Source: Deltaproteobacteria bacterium (GTDB taxonomy: Bacteria; Desulfobacterota; Desulfuromonadia; Geobacterales; Pseudopelobacteraceae). From it: a DNA stretch of 64,000 nt. Positions 9,403-59,725 of this stretch are shown here, piece after piece (the stretch's first letter is position 1; each line of letters begins with the position of its first letter). A program made the position numbers and the translations under genes. The DNA lies in contig JAJYBH010000002.1 in NCBI GenBank assembly GCA_021779135.1, positions 15,423 through 79,422 on the forward strand, in the 5' to 3' direction. The notes beneath the pieces were generated by a model that was not told where the DNA came from, did no database searches, and saw nothing but the letters and a program-made list of their open reading frames with translations.

Positions 9403-9438
9403 GTCCTTTGCACTCCTTTCGTGCTGTGGTCCTGACCC

Positions 9439-9496
9439 TGATAAACAGGATAAGTGCGTTAACGAAGTTATTTTCTGCCGGAACATAACTTCTAAC
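9439..9496 (-). promoter_or_regulatory. Leader stem-loop motif copy A (GUUAGAAG-helix-CUUCGUUAACGCACUUAUCC)
   Basis: 8-bp helix GAAGUUAU/AUAACUUC (9464-9471 / 9485-9492). The 21-nt flank is identical to the copy at 55095-55115. It lies between the T-box terminator and the leuA RBS. Confidence 0.6.
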
Positions 9497-9499
9497 TTG

Positions 9500-9745
9500 C
9501 TAAAAATAAAAATGCCTCCGCCCCAAACAGGGGCGAAGGCATGAAAGCGTTCGCGGTACCACCCTTTTTACCTGACAGCTTCTGTCAGGCCTTATTGCAC
9601 CCTTGACGCGGGAGAACGGCTCCGGCTACTCTGTTCACCGGAACGGCTCCAAGGCGAGTTCATCATCCGTGCTTACCGGTTCGCACCACCCACCGGCTCT
9701 CTGGAAAGCCCGCAACGACTACTACTCCTCTTCACAGCCTTTAAA
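9500..9745 (-). promoter_or_regulatory. T-box leader (Leu specifier candidate CUC) with intrinsic terminator
   Basis: The minus strand reads ...CAGAGAGCCGGUGGGUGGUGCGAACCGG...GAACUCGCC...AAAAAGGGUGGUACCGCGAA, followed by the terminator GCCUUCGCCCCUGUUUGGGGCGGAGGCAUUUUUAUUUUU (plus 9502-9542). Confidence 0.8.
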
Positions 9746-15583: not shown

Positions 15584-15745
15584 AAAAAAGCCCCTTCGCA
15601 CAAACAGAGAAGGGGCTGAAACAACACAGGTCGCAGCGCACCTCTCATCTTTGCCTTTCGGCAGGAATTAGCACCTGACGCCTCATTGGCCGGTTGCTGT
15701 GGTTTCGCAGGGCCTTTCCCTCCACCACTCTCGATAAGCAGGTTT
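15584..15745 (-). promoter_or_regulatory. SAM-I (S-box) riboswitch with terminator
   Basis: The minus strand reads CUUAUCGAGAGUGGUGGAGGGAAAGGCCCUGCGAAACCACAGCAACC...AGGUGCUAAUUCCUGCCGAAAGGCAAAGAUGAGAGG, followed by the terminator AGCCCCUUCUCUGUUUGUGCGAAGGGGCUUUUUU (plus 15584-15617). Confidence 0.9.
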
Positions 15746-19239: not shown

Positions 19240-19357
19240 AACGAGACACACGATAATACTAAACCATCCGTGAGGATGGGACGGAAAGCCCAAGGGTCTC
19301 CCCCGAGACAGCCGGGTCGCCGAAATATCTCAACGATATGGTGACCCGTTTTTTTTT
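19240..19357 (+). promoter_or_regulatory. GEMM-I-like cyclic-dinucleotide riboswitch with terminator
   Basis: Core AAACCAUCCGUGAGGAUGGGACGGAAAGCCCAAGGGUCUC...GAGACAGCCGGGUCGCC. The terminator GGGUCGCCGAAAUAUCUCAACGAUAUGGUGACCC plus a U9 run (19313-19357) overlaps the 3' part of the aptamer. Confidence 0.7.
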
Positions 19358-50110: not shown

Positions 50111-51046
<936 letters not shown>

Positions 51047-51104
51047 TCAGCGGTCGTTGCGGAAACAATTTTCGTGAACAAACTTTTTTGTTTTTGTTCG
51101 GGGC

Positions 51105-51146
51105 AAAAAATAAAGGCGCCCCTTGTGTAATGGAGGCGCCTTTGCC
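51105..51146 (-). terminator. nifH leader intrinsic terminator carrying the conserved GGCAAAGGCGCC
   Basis: The minus strand reads GGCAAAGGCGCCUCCAUUACACAAGGGGCGCCUUUAUUUUUU. Confidence 0.7.
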
Positions 51147-52784: not shown

Positions 52785-54563
52785 TCACTTCCGCGGCTGA
52801 TTGAAGAGCGAACTTAACATCCGCCCGAGTTCAGCCATGGTATACGGCTTGGACACGGCGCCGCTGAAACCGTACCTGCGGTAGTCGGACATGATCGGAT
52901 CGTTCGAATAGCCGCTCGATACGATCAGGCAGGCCTGCGGGTCGATGGCAAGAATCTGCTCCGCGGCCTCCTTGCCCCCCATGCCCCCCGGGATAGTCAG
53001 ATCCATGATCACGGTGGAATAGGGCGATCCTGATGTCCGGGCGGCCTCATACAGCGCCACGGCCTCCGAACCGCTGCCGCAGGTCGTTACCCGGTAACCC
53101 AGGTATTCGAGCATTTCCGCGGCAACGGTACGGATAATCTCCTCGTCATCCATGACCAGGATGGAACCACCCGCATGCTGGCCGACGGACTGATTGGCGG
53201 TATCATCTTGAGGATGCGGGTCGCTTTCGCCGGTCGAGGGGAGGTACACGCTGACGGTCGTGCCATTGCCGACGGCGGAACTGACTTCTGTCGCCCCGCC
53301 ATGCCGGTTTACGATCGAATAGACCGAAGCAAGACCGAGCCCGGTCCCTGTTGGTTTGGTCGTGAAATAGGGGTCAAAGATCTTTTTCAGGTCAGCGTCA
53401 GAAATGCCGCACCCTTGATCGATAAAGGATATCTTCACGTATGCCCCCGGCTGGAGCATCAACGCATTGGTGGAGCTGAACCGCACATTGTGCGCCACGA
53501 CGGTCAGCACCCCGCCTTGCGGCATTGCCTGTATGGCATTGAGAACGATGTTGTGAAAAACCTGCGAGATCTGCCCTTCATCGGCTTCGATGGCGTGAAC
53601 GGCATCGGCCATGTCAACGACCCCTTTCACGTTTGACCCGCGCAGGACCAGGGAAACCGATTCCTGCACCAGTTGCCGGACGGAAACCAGCTTCTTGACC
53701 GGTTCGCCGCCTTTGGCAAAGGTCAGGAGCTGTAGGGAAAGGTTGCGCGCCCGTACCGATGCAATCTCGGCCTCCACCAGCGGTTTTGCCGCCTTGTGTC
53801 CGGCATCGATAAACATCTGCGCATACGAGATGTTCCCCATAATCCCGGCAAGGATATTGTTGAAATCATGGGCAATGCCTCCGGCGAGGACACCCAGTGA
53901 TTCCAGTTTATCGATTTTCAGTTTCGCATTTTCCTGCTCTTTGAGTCCGGTAATGTCCCGGGCAATACCGAAAAGGCCGACAACCTCACCATCCTCGGCG
54001 CGCATCGCCCCCTTGGTCGACAAAAAATAGCGCTCTCCCTCCGAAGTCGAGAGGTGCTCTTCATAGGTCCGCGGTCCGGTCTGAGCCATTACCCACTGAT
54101 CCTTGGCCATAATGGAGCGTGCATCATCAGGGGGGAAGAGGTGCAGGTCATCCTGGCCAAGAATCTCATTCACAGGCTTCCCGACGAACCGCGCCACCGA
54201 CGAATTGGCCAGCAGGTAGCGACCCTCGGCGTCTTTGACATAGACGGCATCGGTCGTCCCTTCGATGATGATATCCAGCAGGGCCTTCTGTTGGGCCAGA
54301 TTCCGCAGCGCTTGATCGCGCTCGCTCAGGTGGATGCCGATCCGTCTGATATAACGGGCGATAAGGACATAGAGAAGCGTCGCGGTGAGGGCGATGAACA
54401 GGAGCCCTTTGAACAGGGAAATACGGGTAATGATGGCCGGGTCCCGTACCAGCAGGACCAGGATGGTGTCGGACAGGTATATCCAGAGGCCGCCAAACAG
54501 GGAGTATATCGCGACGATGCGTACGATTTCCGTGCGTGACGATTCCTGAATCTGGTTCTTCAT
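52785..54563 (-). CDS. Hybrid sensor kinase (2 TM, PAS, HisKA, HATPase, REC)
   Basis: Start probably ATG 54563 (RBS GGAGA). It has an H-box (AGGIAHDFNN), a G-box (GTGLGLA) and a C-terminal REC (ILVMDDEE...VIMDLTIPGG). Confidence 0.8.
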   Translation of the reverse strand: MKNQIQESSRTEIVRIVAIYSLFGGLWIYLSDTILVLLVRDPAIITRISLFKGLLFIALTATLLYVLIARYIRRIGIHLSERDQALRNLAQQKALLDIIIEGTTDAVYVKDAEGRYLLANSSVARFVGKPVNEILGQDDLHLFPPDDARSIMAKDQWVMAQTGPRTYEEHLSTSEGERYFLSTKGAMRAEDGEVVGLFGIARDITGLKEQENAKLKIDKLESLGVLAGGIAHDFNNILAGIMGNISYAQMFIDAGHKAAKPLVEAEIASVRARNLSLQLLTFAKGGEPVKKLVSVRQLVQESVSLVLRGSNVKGVVDMADAVHAIEADEGQISQVFHNIVLNAIQAMPQGGVLTVVAHNVRFSSTNALMLQPGAYVKISFIDQGCGISDADLKKIFDPYFTTKPTGTGLGLASVYSIVNRHGGATEVSSAVGNGTTVSVYLPSTGESDPHPQDDTANQSVGQHAGGSILVMDDEEIIRTVAAEMLEYLGYRVTTCGSGSEAVALYEAARTSGSPYSTVIMDLTIPGGMGGKEAAEQILAIDPQACLIVSSGYSNDPIMSDYRRYGFSGAVSKPYTMAELGRMLSSLFNQPRK

Positions 54564-54773
54564 GGGTGTCTCCAGCGTGTGCGGAATCGGCAATTACATG
54601 CTTAGTGTTGTTTCAGCTATTCTCTTTTATCACATAATTGCGTCCGTACAGCTAGATTTTCCAGCGCAAAAGCCACTCAGAAAGAGCGGCTTTCGCGCTG
54701 CCGGGTGGGGGGACAAGATTGGCGGGCGGTTTCTTCTCCTTACGCGCGGGCGTGAATTACAAACCTTGCCGGC

Positions 54774-55064
54774 TTACCGCCCCAGGCATTCCCGCGCCGA
54801 GCCGAGCAGGTAATCGTACACGTCAGCGCGGGTCGTGATGAAGCCCGGCATGTCGTTGAGGATGTCTTCCAGCAGGTTCAGCTCCCGGCCGTCCTCACTC
54901 CCCAGCTCGTTCATAACCGCTTCCATCATCGGCAGGATCTCGTACAGGTCATGGCGGTTGAAGGTTGCCGGGTCGGGCAGGCCGGTGAACTTGGGCTCTT
55001 CGCGCCTGGCGATGTCGCGGGGATAGCGGAATTTTAAATCGGATACTTTGATGATGATGGACAA
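54774..55064 (-). CDS. 96-aa protein of unknown function, last gene of the nifV run
   Basis: TTG start with a strong RBS (AAGGAGG-N6-TTG). It is acidic and has no motif I recognise. Leader motif copy B precedes it. Confidence 0.5.
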   Translation of the reverse strand: MSIIIKVSDLKFRYPRDIARREEPKFTGLPDPATFNRHDLYEILPMMEAVMNELGSEDGRELNLLEDILNDMPGFITTRADVYDYLLGSARECLGR

Positions 55065-55085
55065 AAGGCACCTCCTTGTCAGCCC

Positions 55086-55149
55086 GGATAAACTGGATAA
55101 GTGCGTTAACGAAGTATTTCCTGCAAAAAACGCAGAAAATACTTCTAAC
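55086..55149 (-). promoter_or_regulatory. Leader stem-loop motif copy B
   Basis: The minus strand reads GUUAGAAGUAUUUUCUGC-GUUUUUU-GCAGGAAAUACUUCGUUAACGCACUUAUCCAGUUUAUCC. The helix is 14 bp with one G-U pair. Confidence 0.6.
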
Positions 55150-55152
55150 GTA

Positions 55153-55386
55153 CTAATGTCCGCCGCAGCCGCTGCCGCAACCGCCGCCGCAGCCGGGCTT
55201 GACGATATCGGCGGCCTTGGGCTTGTCGCACAGTTTCAGGGAGGATCGGTCGATGTACCAGGCCTCGTCCACCTGTTTTCCTTCCAGCTCTTTTTTCTTG
55301 AGCATCATCAGCACGCGCATCTCGGTGGTTTCCAGCAGATGGGCCGCCTCGGCAATCGGCAGAAAAGAAGTTCCGGCCTCACACAT
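55153..55386 (-). CDS. 77-aa excisionase/MerR-type HTH protein with a Cys/Gly tail (CGGGCGSGCGGH)
   Basis: RBS GGAGGA overlaps the nifV stop. The HTH-like segment is IAEAAHLLETTEMRVLMMLKKKELEGKQVDEAWYI. The tail resembles the FmdB-family Cys/Gly tail. Confidence 0.6.
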   Translation of the reverse strand: MCEAGTSFLPIAEAAHLLETTEMRVLMMLKKKELEGKQVDEAWYIDRSSLKLCDKPKAADIVKPGCGGGCGSGCGGH

Positions 55387-56543: not shown

Positions 56544-56656
56544 GCTTGGCTCCTTTCCCTTATTCCAATTCCAGATCAAGGATGATATCAAGGCGGTGAG
56601 GATTGAGGCTGCGAGGCGTACATGACGTACGTTGAGCAGCCTGCCCTGACGAGTCA

Positions 56657-56690
56657 GAATAGTTCGTTCACGAATGTTTCACATTCTAAC
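56657..56690 (-). promoter_or_regulatory. Leader stem-loop motif copy D (diverged)
   Basis: The minus strand reads GUUAGAAUGU-GAA-ACAUUCGUGAACGAACUAUUC. Confidence 0.45.
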
Positions 56691-56737
56691 TCACTAAGAC
56701 GAGCCAACGAAGATAGGGCCTTGATATGGAATTGGTA

Positions 56738-58434: not shown

Positions 58435-58459
58435 TCTCCTTCCGTAAGACCGTTGATGC

Positions 58460-58511
58460 GGGTAGGTGCGCTAACGAAGCCATTAGTGCCGAACAGTGTG
58501 GAATCTCTAAC
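58460..58511 (-). promoter_or_regulatory. Leader stem-loop motif copy C
   Basis: The minus strand reads GUUAGAGAUUCCAC...AUGGCUUCGUUAGCGCACCUACCC. The 3' flank matches copies A/B at 17 of 21 positions. Confidence 0.5.
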
Positions 58512-58518
58512 GGAAACT

Positions 58519-58557
58519 AAAAAGCCCGCTGGAAAATGATCCGCGGGCGCCGTTGCC
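58519..58557 (-). terminator. nifB leader terminator preceded by GGCAACGGCGCC
   Basis: The minus strand reads GGCAACGGCGCCCGCGGAUCAUUUUCCAGCGGGCUUUUU. Confidence 0.6.
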
Positions 58558-58571
58558 TACAGCAGGGTATA

Positions 58572-58587: not shown

Positions 58588-58816
58588 GTTTGAATGAACA
58601 GCCCGCAAACCCCTTCAAACACAGGGCAGCCGGCCAACAATGAGAATCAGCATACCAGCGATTTCAAGAACATCCTGCTACTAAAAACGGATCATGGGCA
58701 GTTCGCTTTCGCGGATATGCACATTTTATCGGCATATATCCGGTCGGATTATTCCTTGCATGCGATCAACCCGCGTAGTTCCGTTGACCCGTACAATTCC
58801 AGGATCGGATGTGACC

Positions 58817-59725
58817 ATGTTCAACAGCTACAACCTCGATGAAATCCGTGATCGCGGCCGGGCGGCCTTTGTCGGCATGGCCATCGGCGATGCCCTGGGC
58901 GCCACGGTCGAGTTCATGACCGCCCCCGAGATTGCCGCAAAATACGGCATATTCCGGGATATCATCGGTGGCGGCTGGCTGAGGTTGAAGCCCGGCCAGG
59001 TGACTGACGATACCGAAATGGCGCTCTGCATCGCCCGGGCTATCGTCAAGAGCCAGGCCTGGTCGCTGGAAGCCATTGCCGCCAACTTCGCCGCCTGGCT
59101 CAAATCCCGCCCGGTGGATTGCGGCGATACCTGCCGCAAGGGTATCCGCTCCTACATGCTGCACGGCACCCTGGAAACCCCGCTAAATGAATGGGATGCC
59201 GGCAACGGCGCGGCCATGCGGATCCTCCCGGCCGTCCTTTTTTCATTGCCTGACGAACAGTTGCTTAAAAAATACGCAATTGAGCAGGCGCATATCACCC
59301 ACAACAACCCGGTCTCCGATGCCGCCTGCGTCTGCCTGGGACAGATGCTGCATCTGGCGATCTGCGGAGCCGAAAAGAGCCGGCTGCGACGGCAGGCCGA
59401 CGGATTGGTGGCCCGCTTTCCGACCTTCGCCTTCGAGCCGTATCGGGGGCTGGCCACCGGCTATGTGGTCGATACGATGCAGACCGTCTTCCACTGGTTT
59501 TTTCGGGGGAAAAGCTTCGAGGAGTGCCTGACCGGGACGGTCAATCAGGGGGCCGACGCCGACACGACCGGCGCGATCTGCGGGATGCTGGCCGGGGCCT
59601 ACTATGGTATGGATGGTATCCCGCGGCGCTGGATCAAGAAGATGGACAAAGCGGTTATTGCCGAAATTGAGCAGTTGGCAGACAAGCTGCTGGAGGCGTG
59701 CCCGCTAGGTGGGAACTACAGGTAG
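58817..59725 (+). CDS. draG: ADP-ribosyl-[dinitrogen reductase] glycohydrolase (DraG-like ARH family)
   Basis: Start moved to ATG 58817 (MFNSYNLDEIRDRGRAAFVGMAIGDALGATVEF). It also has DDTEMALC and GADADTTGAICG. Confidence 0.75.
   Translation: MFNSYNLDEIRDRGRAAFVGMAIGDALGATVEFMTAPEIAAKYGIFRDIIGGGWLRLKPGQVTDDTEMALCIARAIVKSQAWSLEAIAANFAAWLKSRPVDCGDTCRKGIRSYMLHGTLETPLNEWDAGNGAAMRILPAVLFSLPDEQLLKKYAIEQAHITHNNPVSDAACVCLGQMLHLAICGAEKSRLRRQADGLVARFPTFAFEPYRGLATGYVVDTMQTVFHWFFRGKSFEECLTGTVNQGADADTTGAICGMLAGAYYGMDGIPRRWIKKMDKAVIAEIEQLADKLLEACPLGGNYR

Follow-up and report, generated by a model that had tools for sequence, protein, structure and literature searches.

A stem-loop between two small genes next to nifV is probably a resident copy of a short, dispersed palindromic repeat

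The stretch of DNA analysed in this work (the window, 64,000 nucleotides) carries on its minus strand, in this order, nifV (homocitrate synthase; TIGR02660, 530 bits), a 77-aa gene, a stem-loop, a 96-aa gene and a gene for a hybrid histidine kinase. In a preliminary description the stem-loop, together with a similar one upstream of leuA, was called a leader motif, and a role as a processing, stability or translational-control element of the operon was proposed for it. This raises the question whether the stem-loop is dedicated to the control of the genes next to it or is a sequence of a different kind that came to lie between them. Our preferred answer, to which we assign a probability of roughly 0.7, is that it is a resident copy of a short, non-coding palindromic repeat of REP/MITE-like type, mobile now or until recently, which the operon tolerates and co-transcribes. 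The stem-loop is referred to below as copy 2, and the one upstream of leuA as copy 1. The features of the junction are the following:

55153..55386, minus strand: 77-aa gene, with a Cys/Gly-rich C-terminus and belonging to no Pfam family
55153..55155, minus strand: TAG stop codon of the 77-aa gene, formed by the first three bases of copy 2
55082..55155, minus strand: repeat copy 2, the full inserted unit of 74 nt, from TAGTACGTTAG to TTTATCCGGGC
55105..55149, minus strand: helix 1 of copy 2, consisting of basal GTTA/TAAC pairs, a 2-nt bulge, a 14-bp stem and the loop GTTTTTT
55084..55096, minus strand: helix 2 of copy 2, CCAG-TTTAT-CCGG, in which the covarying third pair is an A-C mismatch (covariance-model alignment)
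55079..55081, minus strand: displaced native TGA stop codon, immediately 3' of the end of copy 2
55071-55077, minus strand: native Shine-Dalgarno site AAGGAGG, after the displaced TGA
54774..55064, minus strand: 96-aa conserved hypothetical gene, starting with TTG here and with ATG in relatives

The structure reported for copy 2 was reproduced. The minus-strand letters quoted for 55086-55149 were identical on re-reading, and GAAGUAUUUUCUGC (55145-55132) pairs with GCAGGAAAUACUUC (55124-55111) to form the 14-bp helix, made up of 13 Watson-Crick pairs and one U-G pair and capped by a GUUUUUU loop. This helix is also predicted by RNAfold, which extends it, past the 2-nt bulge, by four basal pairs (GUUA/UAAC). 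The 101-nt region around copy 2 has a folding energy of -33.7 kcal/mol (z = -4.6), and none of 200 shuffled sequences was equally stable. The element had also been said to fill the whole spacer, which it does to the point of supplying, with its first three bases, the stop codon of the 77-aa ORF (55155-55153). Because it lies in sense orientation between two co-directional genes, it is almost certainly contained in the operon mRNA. In the minimum-free-energy fold the linker segment GCACUU pairs with AGGUGC at the Shine-Dalgarno site; this predicted pairing appears to be peculiar to the copy 2 site and not a property of the family described below.

One structural claim had to be given up. The fold had been regarded as strand-specific on account of its single G-U pair, whereas the antisense strand of copy 2 folds at least as well as the sense strand, both as RNA (-29.2 vs -28.2 kcal/mol) and with DNA parameters (-15.2 vs -15.0). 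The lone G-U pair of this copy is therefore uninformative about the strand.

The presence of a second copy with matching flanks upstream of leuA was borne out: a 26-mer from the 3' flank of copy 2 matches there with two mismatches, where no such match is expected by chance. The helix of copy 2 is, as described, 6 bp longer than that of copy 1, whose contiguous helix has 8 bp; in copy 1 the top of helix 1 is deleted. Two features of the leuA region are relevant here:

9435..9502, minus strand: repeat copy 1 (78.4 bits), between the terminator of a T-box leader and the Shine-Dalgarno/ATG of leuA
9526-9744: T-box leader (Rfam RF00230, 129 bits; full match, model positions 1-219)

Copy 1 was considered as a possible part of the T-box and rejected as such, the T-box match covering 9526-9744 and copy 1 lying downstream of it at 9435-9502.

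A strong hairpin (about -28 kcal/mol) between two genes could act in intrinsic termination or attenuation and so shield the 96-aa gene in part from transcription of nifV and the 77-aa gene. The AU-rich stem of copy 2, however, leads into CGUUAACGCAC and not into a U-run, and a terminator scan found nothing at 55080-55155 on either strand. Moreover, at copy 1 a bona fide T-box terminator already precedes the element and leuA follows directly, and a second constitutive terminator there would be lethal to leuA expression. We consider termination or attenuation an extremely unlikely function. No promoter signal stands out at copy 2.

Evidence on the origin of the stem-loop came from relatives. Homologues of the 96-aa protein were fetched with their contigs, and the spacers between the 77-aa and the 96-aa genes were compared:

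96-aa identity 100% and 98% (L121-L126, L134): identical element present
96-aa identity 89%, 87%, 76% and 72% (L127, L136, L133 and L132, respectively): spacer empty, distance from stop to start 14-16 nt
Empty site in L127: GGGCAT TGA CAGGGAGGTAAGTT ATG (after CAT TGA: CAGGGAGG)
Empty site in L136: GGCCAT TGA AAGCGGGG...ATG
Filled site in the window: GGACAT[TAGTACGTTAG...TTTATCCGGGC]TGACAAGGAGGTGCCTT TTG, that is, CAT[TAG...GGGC]TGACAAGGAGG

In the four empty loci a covariance-model search with filters off detected no copy. The boundaries of copy 2 were set by alignment of the empty with the filled sites, which places the insertion precisely between the two T residues of CAT^TGA in the 77-aa gene. 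The TAG of the element now terminates this gene, and the native TGA and Shine-Dalgarno site are intact at the 3' edge. These observations show that the insertion into this operon is recent, lineage-specific, precise and duplication-free. Since the orthologous site is empty in close relatives, the 77-aa/96-aa operon works without the element. Two further relatives (L128 and L131) have different, unrelated repeats in the same spacer.

The insertion preference seen at copy 2 recurs in other copies of the repeat. The base at position -1 is T in 57 of 58 copies, positions -2 to -4 being only T-rich, and the 3' flank of these copies reads T (36), A (42), G (41), G (34) (n=58), which on the opposite strand would correspond to a YYTA target 5' of the element. 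No target-site duplication was found: the 5' TAG is invariant and the 3' triplet varies (TAG, TAA, TGA, CAG). A TAG that stays constant beside such changing triplets belongs to the element and is not a duplication. Duplications of 'TAG', 'TA' or 'T' were each considered and rejected, for the 5' TAG never follows the 3' triplet, and nested insertions occur in a loop without TA. Terminal inverted repeats were likewise absent, no similarity being seen when TAGTAAGTTAGAAG, the 5' end, was compared with rCCCyGATAAAC, the 3' end in reverse complement.

The extent of the family was determined by searching a genome collection with the exact 18-mer TCGTTAACGCACTTATCC. The repeat was found at a minimum of 120 loci (at least 122 copies) in at least 69 assemblies, assemblies being counted by accession prefix; among the matches listed, the largest number of loci in one assembly was at least 8. 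Almost all matches listed come from assemblies labelled either Geobacter, Geobacteraceae, Geobacterales, Desulfuromonadaceae or Pelobacter, or Smithella, Syntrophaceae or Syntrophales. A few bins among the matches listed carry the labels Pedobacter, Dongiaceae, Gallionella or Micrarchaeota, probably through mis-binning. Complete genomes with the repeat include OW818642.1, OW818669.1 and that of Pelotalea chapellei DSM 13688.

An alignment of 73 copies (MAFFT) yielded a consensus and a covariance model (R1), which recognises copy 2 with 82.1 bits (E = 8e-17). The consensus is given below, first in short form and then with the loop; slashes mark the ends of the element:

T/TAGTAAGTTAGAAGTTATTTTCTGC-loop-GCAGAAAATAAyTTCGTTAACGCACTTATCCyGTTTATCrGGGy/TAGG
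tT/TAGTAAGTTAGAAGTTATTTTCTGCGnTTTTnnGGCAGAAAATAAyTTCGTTAACGCACTTATCCyGTTTATCrGGGy/TAGG

The unit is about 75-80 nt long (range 68-80) and consists of an invariant TAG (in TAGTAAGTTAG), helix 1, a linker, helix 2 and the end GGGy. Helix 1 is a long imperfect hairpin; it is followed by the conserved unpaired linker CGTTAACGCACTTAT and by helix 2, a 4-bp hairpin of the form CCyG/CrGG. At the 5' end the family is delimited by TAGTAAGTTAG...CGTTAACGCAC, at the 3' end by CTTATCCyGTTTATCrGGGy. Invariance of the 18-mer in this sample is a product of the exact 18-mer search.

RNAalifold returned no structure for the MAFFT alignment, and the family structure was written by hand, with 19 pairs in helix 1 and 4 pairs in helix 2. 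In this structure 92.7% of the cells pair; slid controls all remained at or below 54%. Changes on both sides were found at 12 pairs, 11 of them among the 19 of helix 1, and the number of double-change cells was 95, compared with 25 +/- 7 in column shuffles, none of 500 shuffles reaching 95. Covariation is clearest at the fourth pair of the GAAG/CTTC segment (G-C 33, A-U 27, U-A 4) and at the third pair of helix 2 (U-A 55, C-G 38, A-U 11; n=124 copies). The counts are inflated by subfamilies, GAAG/CTTC with CCTG/CAGG being mostly of Geobacter type and GAAA/TTTC with CCCG/CGGG mostly of Smithella type; because many of the changes separate these two subfamilies, independent covariation events are fewer than the cell counts. 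The basal GTTA/TAAC helix has no covariation support of its own: its pairs show no variation in the main family and do not form in the CGTGAACGTAC subfamily. A family made up of conserved unpaired segments and covarying stems accounts for the identical flanks and different helices that had been noticed in copies 1 and 2.

Although the single G-U pair of copy 2 says nothing about the strand, the family as a whole does. Across the family G-U cells outnumber A-C cells 63 to 33 (p = 0.003), and it follows that one strand is the folded one. This strand bias is real but modest, and the folded molecule is either RNA or single-stranded DNA.

The placement of the copies was examined with crude ORF calls among the matches listed. 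Between co-directional gene pairs 52 copies were in sense and 29 in antisense orientation; 14 other copies were located between divergent and 4 between convergent genes. The functions of the neighbouring genes are diverse and unrelated. In 26 of 37 cases an upstream same-strand ORF (at least 80 codons, reading into the copy) ends exactly at the first TAG of the element, for which the chance expectation is one third, and in 15 of 21 such copies the 3' flank starts with TAG, TAA or TGA. A sense start codon is present within 40 nt in 47 of 85 copies, with a peak 11-15 nt past GGGy. The home of the family is thus mainly the gap between stop codon and Shine-Dalgarno site in operons. Several copies, among them copy 1 and the pair L021/L051, lie directly behind the terminator of a riboswitch or T-box, with the regulated gene following.

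With regard to arrangement, head-to-tail tandems were found at four loci (L017, L049, L058 and L079), and at four others (L005, L084, L107 and L116) a copy with identical TAG...GGGGC ends is nested in the helix-1 loop of another copy. Modules are doubled in L031, L037 and L072, and helix 1 is missing in L066, L088 and L099; internally deleted variants and the CGTGAACGTAC subfamily were also present among the fetched loci. A covariance-model search of 60 loci revealed no inverted partners beyond opposite-strand self-matches. L021 and L051 are orthologous filled sites with identical upstream flanks and very different stems, a contrast that points to re-insertion or exchange rather than to conservation in place.

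These data bear on the possibility that the element is a host-selected, cis-acting RNA cassette, which would provide a stop codon, a hairpin for stabilisation or processing and a linker for protein binding near the Shine-Dalgarno site, and would tune the expression of the 77-aa and 96-aa genes. Such a function would agree with the predominance of sense copies, with the frequent position 11-15 nt before a start codon, with the excess of G-U over A-C on the given strand, with the compensatory changes that preserve both helices, with the location of several copies between a riboswitch or T-box terminator and the regulated gene and with the high conservation of the unpaired linker across two bacterial classes. 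An RNA role at host level would explain the sense bias, and likewise the position relative to start codons, no less well than strand-biased insertion does. Copies from Desulfuromonadia and Syntrophia differ very little in their unpaired segments, which is unusual for MITEs; the similarity could reflect functional constraint rather than horizontal spread, and part of it is ascertainment by the exact 18-mer scan. Nevertheless, about one third of the copies between co-directional genes are antisense, their neighbours are functionally unrelated, the orthologous site is empty in close relatives, the strands of copy 2 fold equally well, the stems of L021 and L051 differ strongly despite identical upstream flanks, the element has no Rfam match, and its tandem, nested and decaying copies are what selfish repeats typically show. 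Taken together, we consider an RNA cassette of this kind unlikely.

The leader interpretation in its original form can be judged from the same observations. The structure stood; a dedicated control function shared by leuA and this operon did not. With at least 120 unrelated loci, about one third of the copies antisense, tandem and nested copies and empty orthologous spacers, the element is not an operon-specific control element but a dispersed repeat. A dedicated leader RNA was rejected also in view of the 52 sense and 29 antisense copies, the diverse neighbours and the lack of a match to a curated covariance model: with Rfam 15 no family matched the element in a search of the whole window at gathering score, and the matches obtained for 54950-55250 at E <= 10 were all spurious hairpins of microRNA type. 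Two other candidates were dismissed by reading the sequence. Integron attC sites begin with RYYYAAC and end with GTTRRRY; the element has the order GTTA...TAAC on either strand, and its core words do not fit. The conserved segments were also inspected for a sigma-54 promoter or an IHF site, and the -12 element and the WATCAA core are missing.

The element contains a TTATCC-n-GTTTATC half-repeat in addition to its palindrome, and many multicopy putative regulator sites have been described in Geobacter intergenic regions (PMC2700814), both of which would suit a duplex-DNA operator, or a nucleoid-protein site, of a global regulator with a regulon including leuA and nif genes. Against a duplex site, the stems vary yet stay paired, which is the signature of a folded single strand, and many copies are inside operons, a few nucleotides from stop or start codons and not at promoters. 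Insertion polymorphism, nesting and tandems are further points against it, and the exact sequences were not found in the genome-paper supplement text searched. We regard a duplex binding site as very unlikely.

If the stem-loop is a resident copy of a mobile palindromic repeat, as we favour, the question arises to which known kind of repeat it is most similar. REP/BIME sequences, which in gamma-proteobacteria, including the SMAG elements of Stenotrophomonas, are associated with RAYT proteins (TnpA-REP, HUH Y1), are likewise short, multicopy, imperfect palindromes. They too are intergenic, occur within operons and are co-transcribed, have neither inverted terminal repeats nor target duplications, and keep their hairpins by compensatory changes (general background on REP-type elements in PMC3184786). 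The present element is, like them, a multicopy extragenic palindrome with a compensated stem. It differs from REP sequences in being AT-rich in a GC-rich genome and in consisting of two different hairpins and a conserved 15-nt linker. It may differ in its start as well: REP sequences have a GTAG tag beside the stem, whereas the element starts with TAG, its conserved 5' segment TAGTAAGTTAG having no GTAG and a GTTAG abutting the stem. It also occurs in head-to-tail tandems and nested copies, whereas REPIN/BIME are inverted doublets. Some words (GGATAAG, GCGTTnAC and the terminal TAG/TAC) are, we assume, common to the element and the E. coli REP consensus.

A second group for comparison is formed by the ends of IS200/IS605 elements and their miniature derivatives (palindrome-associated transposable elements), a comparison based on the biology of IS608 and ISDra2. 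These also have no terminal inverted repeats and make no target duplication, and they have a sub-terminal hairpin near each end, corresponding to helix 1 at the 5' and helix 2 at the 3' end of the element. Folding that is strand-specific and tolerant of G-T, and new copies placed right after the end of an old one, giving head-to-tail arrays, are further similarities, and insertion next to a short preferred sequence may be another. In contrast to the 5' preference of IS200/IS605, the target preference of the element seems to span both sides (T^TAGG).

Classical MITEs such as Correia (Neisseria), ERIC (enterobacteria) and Chunjie (Geobacter uraniireducens) are likewise non-autonomous, AT-rich and multicopy (PMC10969869, PMC3184786). 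Filled and empty sites exist between relatives, operons survive the insertion, and the RNA folds when transcribed (PMC10969869, PMC3184786); the element, too, is short, non-coding and multicopy and has both filled and empty orthologous sites. MITEs, however, have terminal inverted repeats and target duplications (Correia duplicates TA), neither of which is present in the ~75-80-nt element. Chunjie, the named MITE of Geobacter, is 178-235 bp long and has 21-bp inverted repeats and 9-bp direct repeats (PMC3184786, PMC10969869); the element, 68-80 nt long and without either type of repeat, is a different one.

Papers on Geobacter and Pelobacter genomes report many 'multicopy nucleotide sequences' in intergenic regions, some of them palindromic (PMC2700814, PMC2996986, PMC3543383), and in G. 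bemidjiensis short repeats are present in about 12% of intergenic regions (PMC2996986). The multicopy sequences of Aklujkar et al. represent the same phenomenon in the same clade. Diagnostic words of the element (GTTAACGCAC, AAGTTAGAA, CGTTAACG and others) were absent from the supplement text searched (possibly incomplete) of the G. metallireducens, G. bemidjiensis and P. carbinolicus genome papers, and were not found in the literature searched, which included one supplement of the 50-genome ncRNA paper. In the papers searched we found no description of this family. The element is a small dispersed palindromic repeat that differs from a classical MITE, from a REP doublet and from a dedicated leader RNA; it comes nearest to REP-type repeats and to miniature elements derived from IS200/IS605.

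A scenario for copy 2 can be outlined on this basis. In the lineage of the window one copy inserted after CAT, the last sense codon, and ahead of the native TGA; the operon would tolerate the insertion owing to the new TAG stop, the intact native stop and Shine-Dalgarno site and the absence of a terminator-like U-run on either strand. The mobile form may have been a folded single strand moved in trans by a hairpin-specific enzyme, for example an HUH/Y1 transposase of IS200/IS605 or RAYT type. The lack of inverted repeats and target duplications, the sub-terminal hairpins and the position of new copies directly after old ends point to such single-strand mobilisation by an enzyme of the IS200/IS605 or RAYT kind, although we consider this step, taken by itself, less likely than not. 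Stem covariation and the bias of G-T over A-C would then reflect the needs of an enzyme substrate rather than of an mRNA, and strand-biased insertion, together with genes and replication running in the same direction, could account for the 64% sense orientation. The fetched loci, a small sample of about 1 Mb, yielded neither an autonomous element nor a transposase and contained no long element bounded by both ends; single-end matches in the same small sample, inspected for a full-length, tnpA-bearing relative, were variant or shortened copies only.

The insertion may have had consequences for the operon. With it, stop and start moved apart, from about 15 nt to 88 nt, and tight translational coupling should be loosened as a result. 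REP elements stabilise upstream mRNA and, near a stop codon, disturb termination. By analogy, a hairpin of about -28 kcal/mol that starts 3-8 nt past the stop could shield the upstream mRNA from 3' exonucleases or impede terminating ribosomes. The preliminary description had mentioned processing, stability and translation; effects on mRNA processing, stability or translational coupling are possible, and they would be secondary and passive. A more elaborate version, in which an operon-compatible mobile element of a type not recognised before, common to Desulfuromonadia and Syntrophia, homes in before stop codons (T^TAR), contributes an in-frame TAG, lacks a terminator on both strands, spares the Shine-Dalgarno site of the following gene and is moved in trans by a hairpin-specific enzyme (HUH-like or other), with hosts partly co-opting it as an uncoupling or stabilising intercistronic RNA module, seems to us doubtful in its entirety.

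For the annotation of these genomes the distinction has practical importance. The shared stem-loop is no evidence of shared regulation of leuA and the nif-associated small genes, being a recent insertion that relatives lack. The kind of element is ordinary; the family is widespread, unannotated and unusually tidy in its insertion before stop codons. Abundant in Geobacter-like and Smithella-like genomes and absent from Rfam, it will go on turning up as a 'conserved structured RNA' when such genomes are screened comparatively, and a covariance model of the family would let annotators mask its copies. Duplication-free insertion before stop codons also makes it a convenient case for studying the enzyme that mobilises hairpin repeats and the tolerance of operons.

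The window contains more than the two copies originally reported. Both of these were confirmed, and their number had to be raised: a scan of the window with the covariance model, filters off, added two decayed copies and one probable one:

51026..51109, plus strand: decayed copy (35.8 bits, E = 4e-6), upstream of nifH (50111-50980, minus strand) and antisense to it
56638..56698, minus strand: decayed copy (25.5 bits, E = 9e-4), in sense orientation in the spacer upstream of nifV
58442..58521, minus strand: probable, strongly decayed copy (13.7 bits, E = 0.5), directly upstream of a radical-SAM (nifB-like) gene

The weak match at 58442-58521 (minus strand) contains GCTTCGTTAGCGCAC and, at the expected distance, the 5' motif TTTAGT...GTTAGAG, and is probably a third decayed copy. 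In the relative L131 the spacer corresponding to the one with the decayed copy upstream of nifV measures only 28 nt.

The two genes on either side of repeat copy 2, and the gene that follows them, are arranged on the minus strand of the window as follows.

55153-55386 (-), 77-aa gene, no Pfam family
54774-55064 (-), 96-aa gene, no Pfam family
52785-54593 (-), PAS/HATPase/receiver hybrid kinase, immediately 3' of the 96-aa gene

The 77-aa protein, whose C-terminal tail is CGGGCGSGCGGH, gave a weak excisionase-like helix-turn-helix match (E = 0.0085), and 279 homologues of the 96-aa protein were found. Both genes are kept in the nifV neighbourhood across Geobacter/Desulfuromonadaceae, and the genes that usually come next in relatives are an overlapping one of 141-144 aa, a GATase and CowN. 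The start codon of the 96-aa gene (55062-55064 (-)) is TTG in the window lineage; the same codon is ATG in every relative looked at.

The 77-aa/96-aa junction is a landing site that has been used recurrently. In two related contigs, L128 and L131, the spacer is filled by other repeats, unrelated to that of the window: an inverted repeat made of CACGGAGAAACGGAG words (L128:2309-2500) and a palindromic, G/C-rich insert (L131:2372-2500).

In the majority of the relatives examined (L127, L129, L130, L132, L133 and L136), the place of the kinase is taken by a 141-144-aa gene overlapping the end of the 96-aa gene. L131 has the 96-aa gene, a gap and then a 141-aa gene, and in L121, which encodes an identical 96-aa protein, a 144-aa gene was called 3' of the kinase. 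The kinase arrangement is a second rearrangement of the cluster, specific to the window lineage.

Decayed copies of the repeat lie upstream of three genes of the nif region.

51026-51109 (+), decayed copy upstream of nifH, antisense to nifH
56638-56698 (-), decayed copy upstream of nifV, sense
58442-58521 (-), decayed copy, a weak call, upstream of the radical-SAM nifB-like gene, sense

These three copies show that the nif region of the window has been a repeated target of the element. Rare riboswitch candidates located 5' of nifV and nifB in Geobacter, the 'nifV motif' and the 'nifB motif', were described in a 2024 survey with four representatives apiece (PMC11109978). The nifV and nifB-like upstream spacers of the window (56592-56737 and 58435-58560, respectively) both contain decayed repeat copies. 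A DraG-like gene and the radical-SAM/acetyltransferase/nifV cluster are divergently transcribed.

58694-59725 (+), ADP-ribosylglycohydrolase, DraG-like, 218 bits

In two species the repeat is present at the same orthologous site (L021:786-870 and L051:2632-2717), where a T-run terminator is followed by the repeat and then by a small gene. The two loci have exactly the same upstream flank but differ strongly in helix 1, whose sequence is compensated internally in each copy. This suggests re-insertion or inter-copy exchange and not slow divergence in place.

Repeat copy 1 is situated 3' of the terminator of the leuA T-box leader and 5' of the leuA Shine-Dalgarno site. An Rfam scan also detected two riboswitches in the window.

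9526-9744 (-), complete T-box leader with its own terminator, upstream of leuA (RF00230, 129 bits)
15642-15740 (-), SAM-I riboswitch (76.7 bits)
19248-19324 (+), c-di-GMP-I riboswitch (45.9 bits)

Some repeat-bearing contigs (L001, L005-L007, L010, L016, L018, L090, L093, L104 and L112) come from MAGs labelled Pedobacter, Dongiaceae, Micrarchaeota and Gallionella. Most likely these are mis-binned Desulfobacterota contigs, and if so, the repeat could act as a lineage marker.
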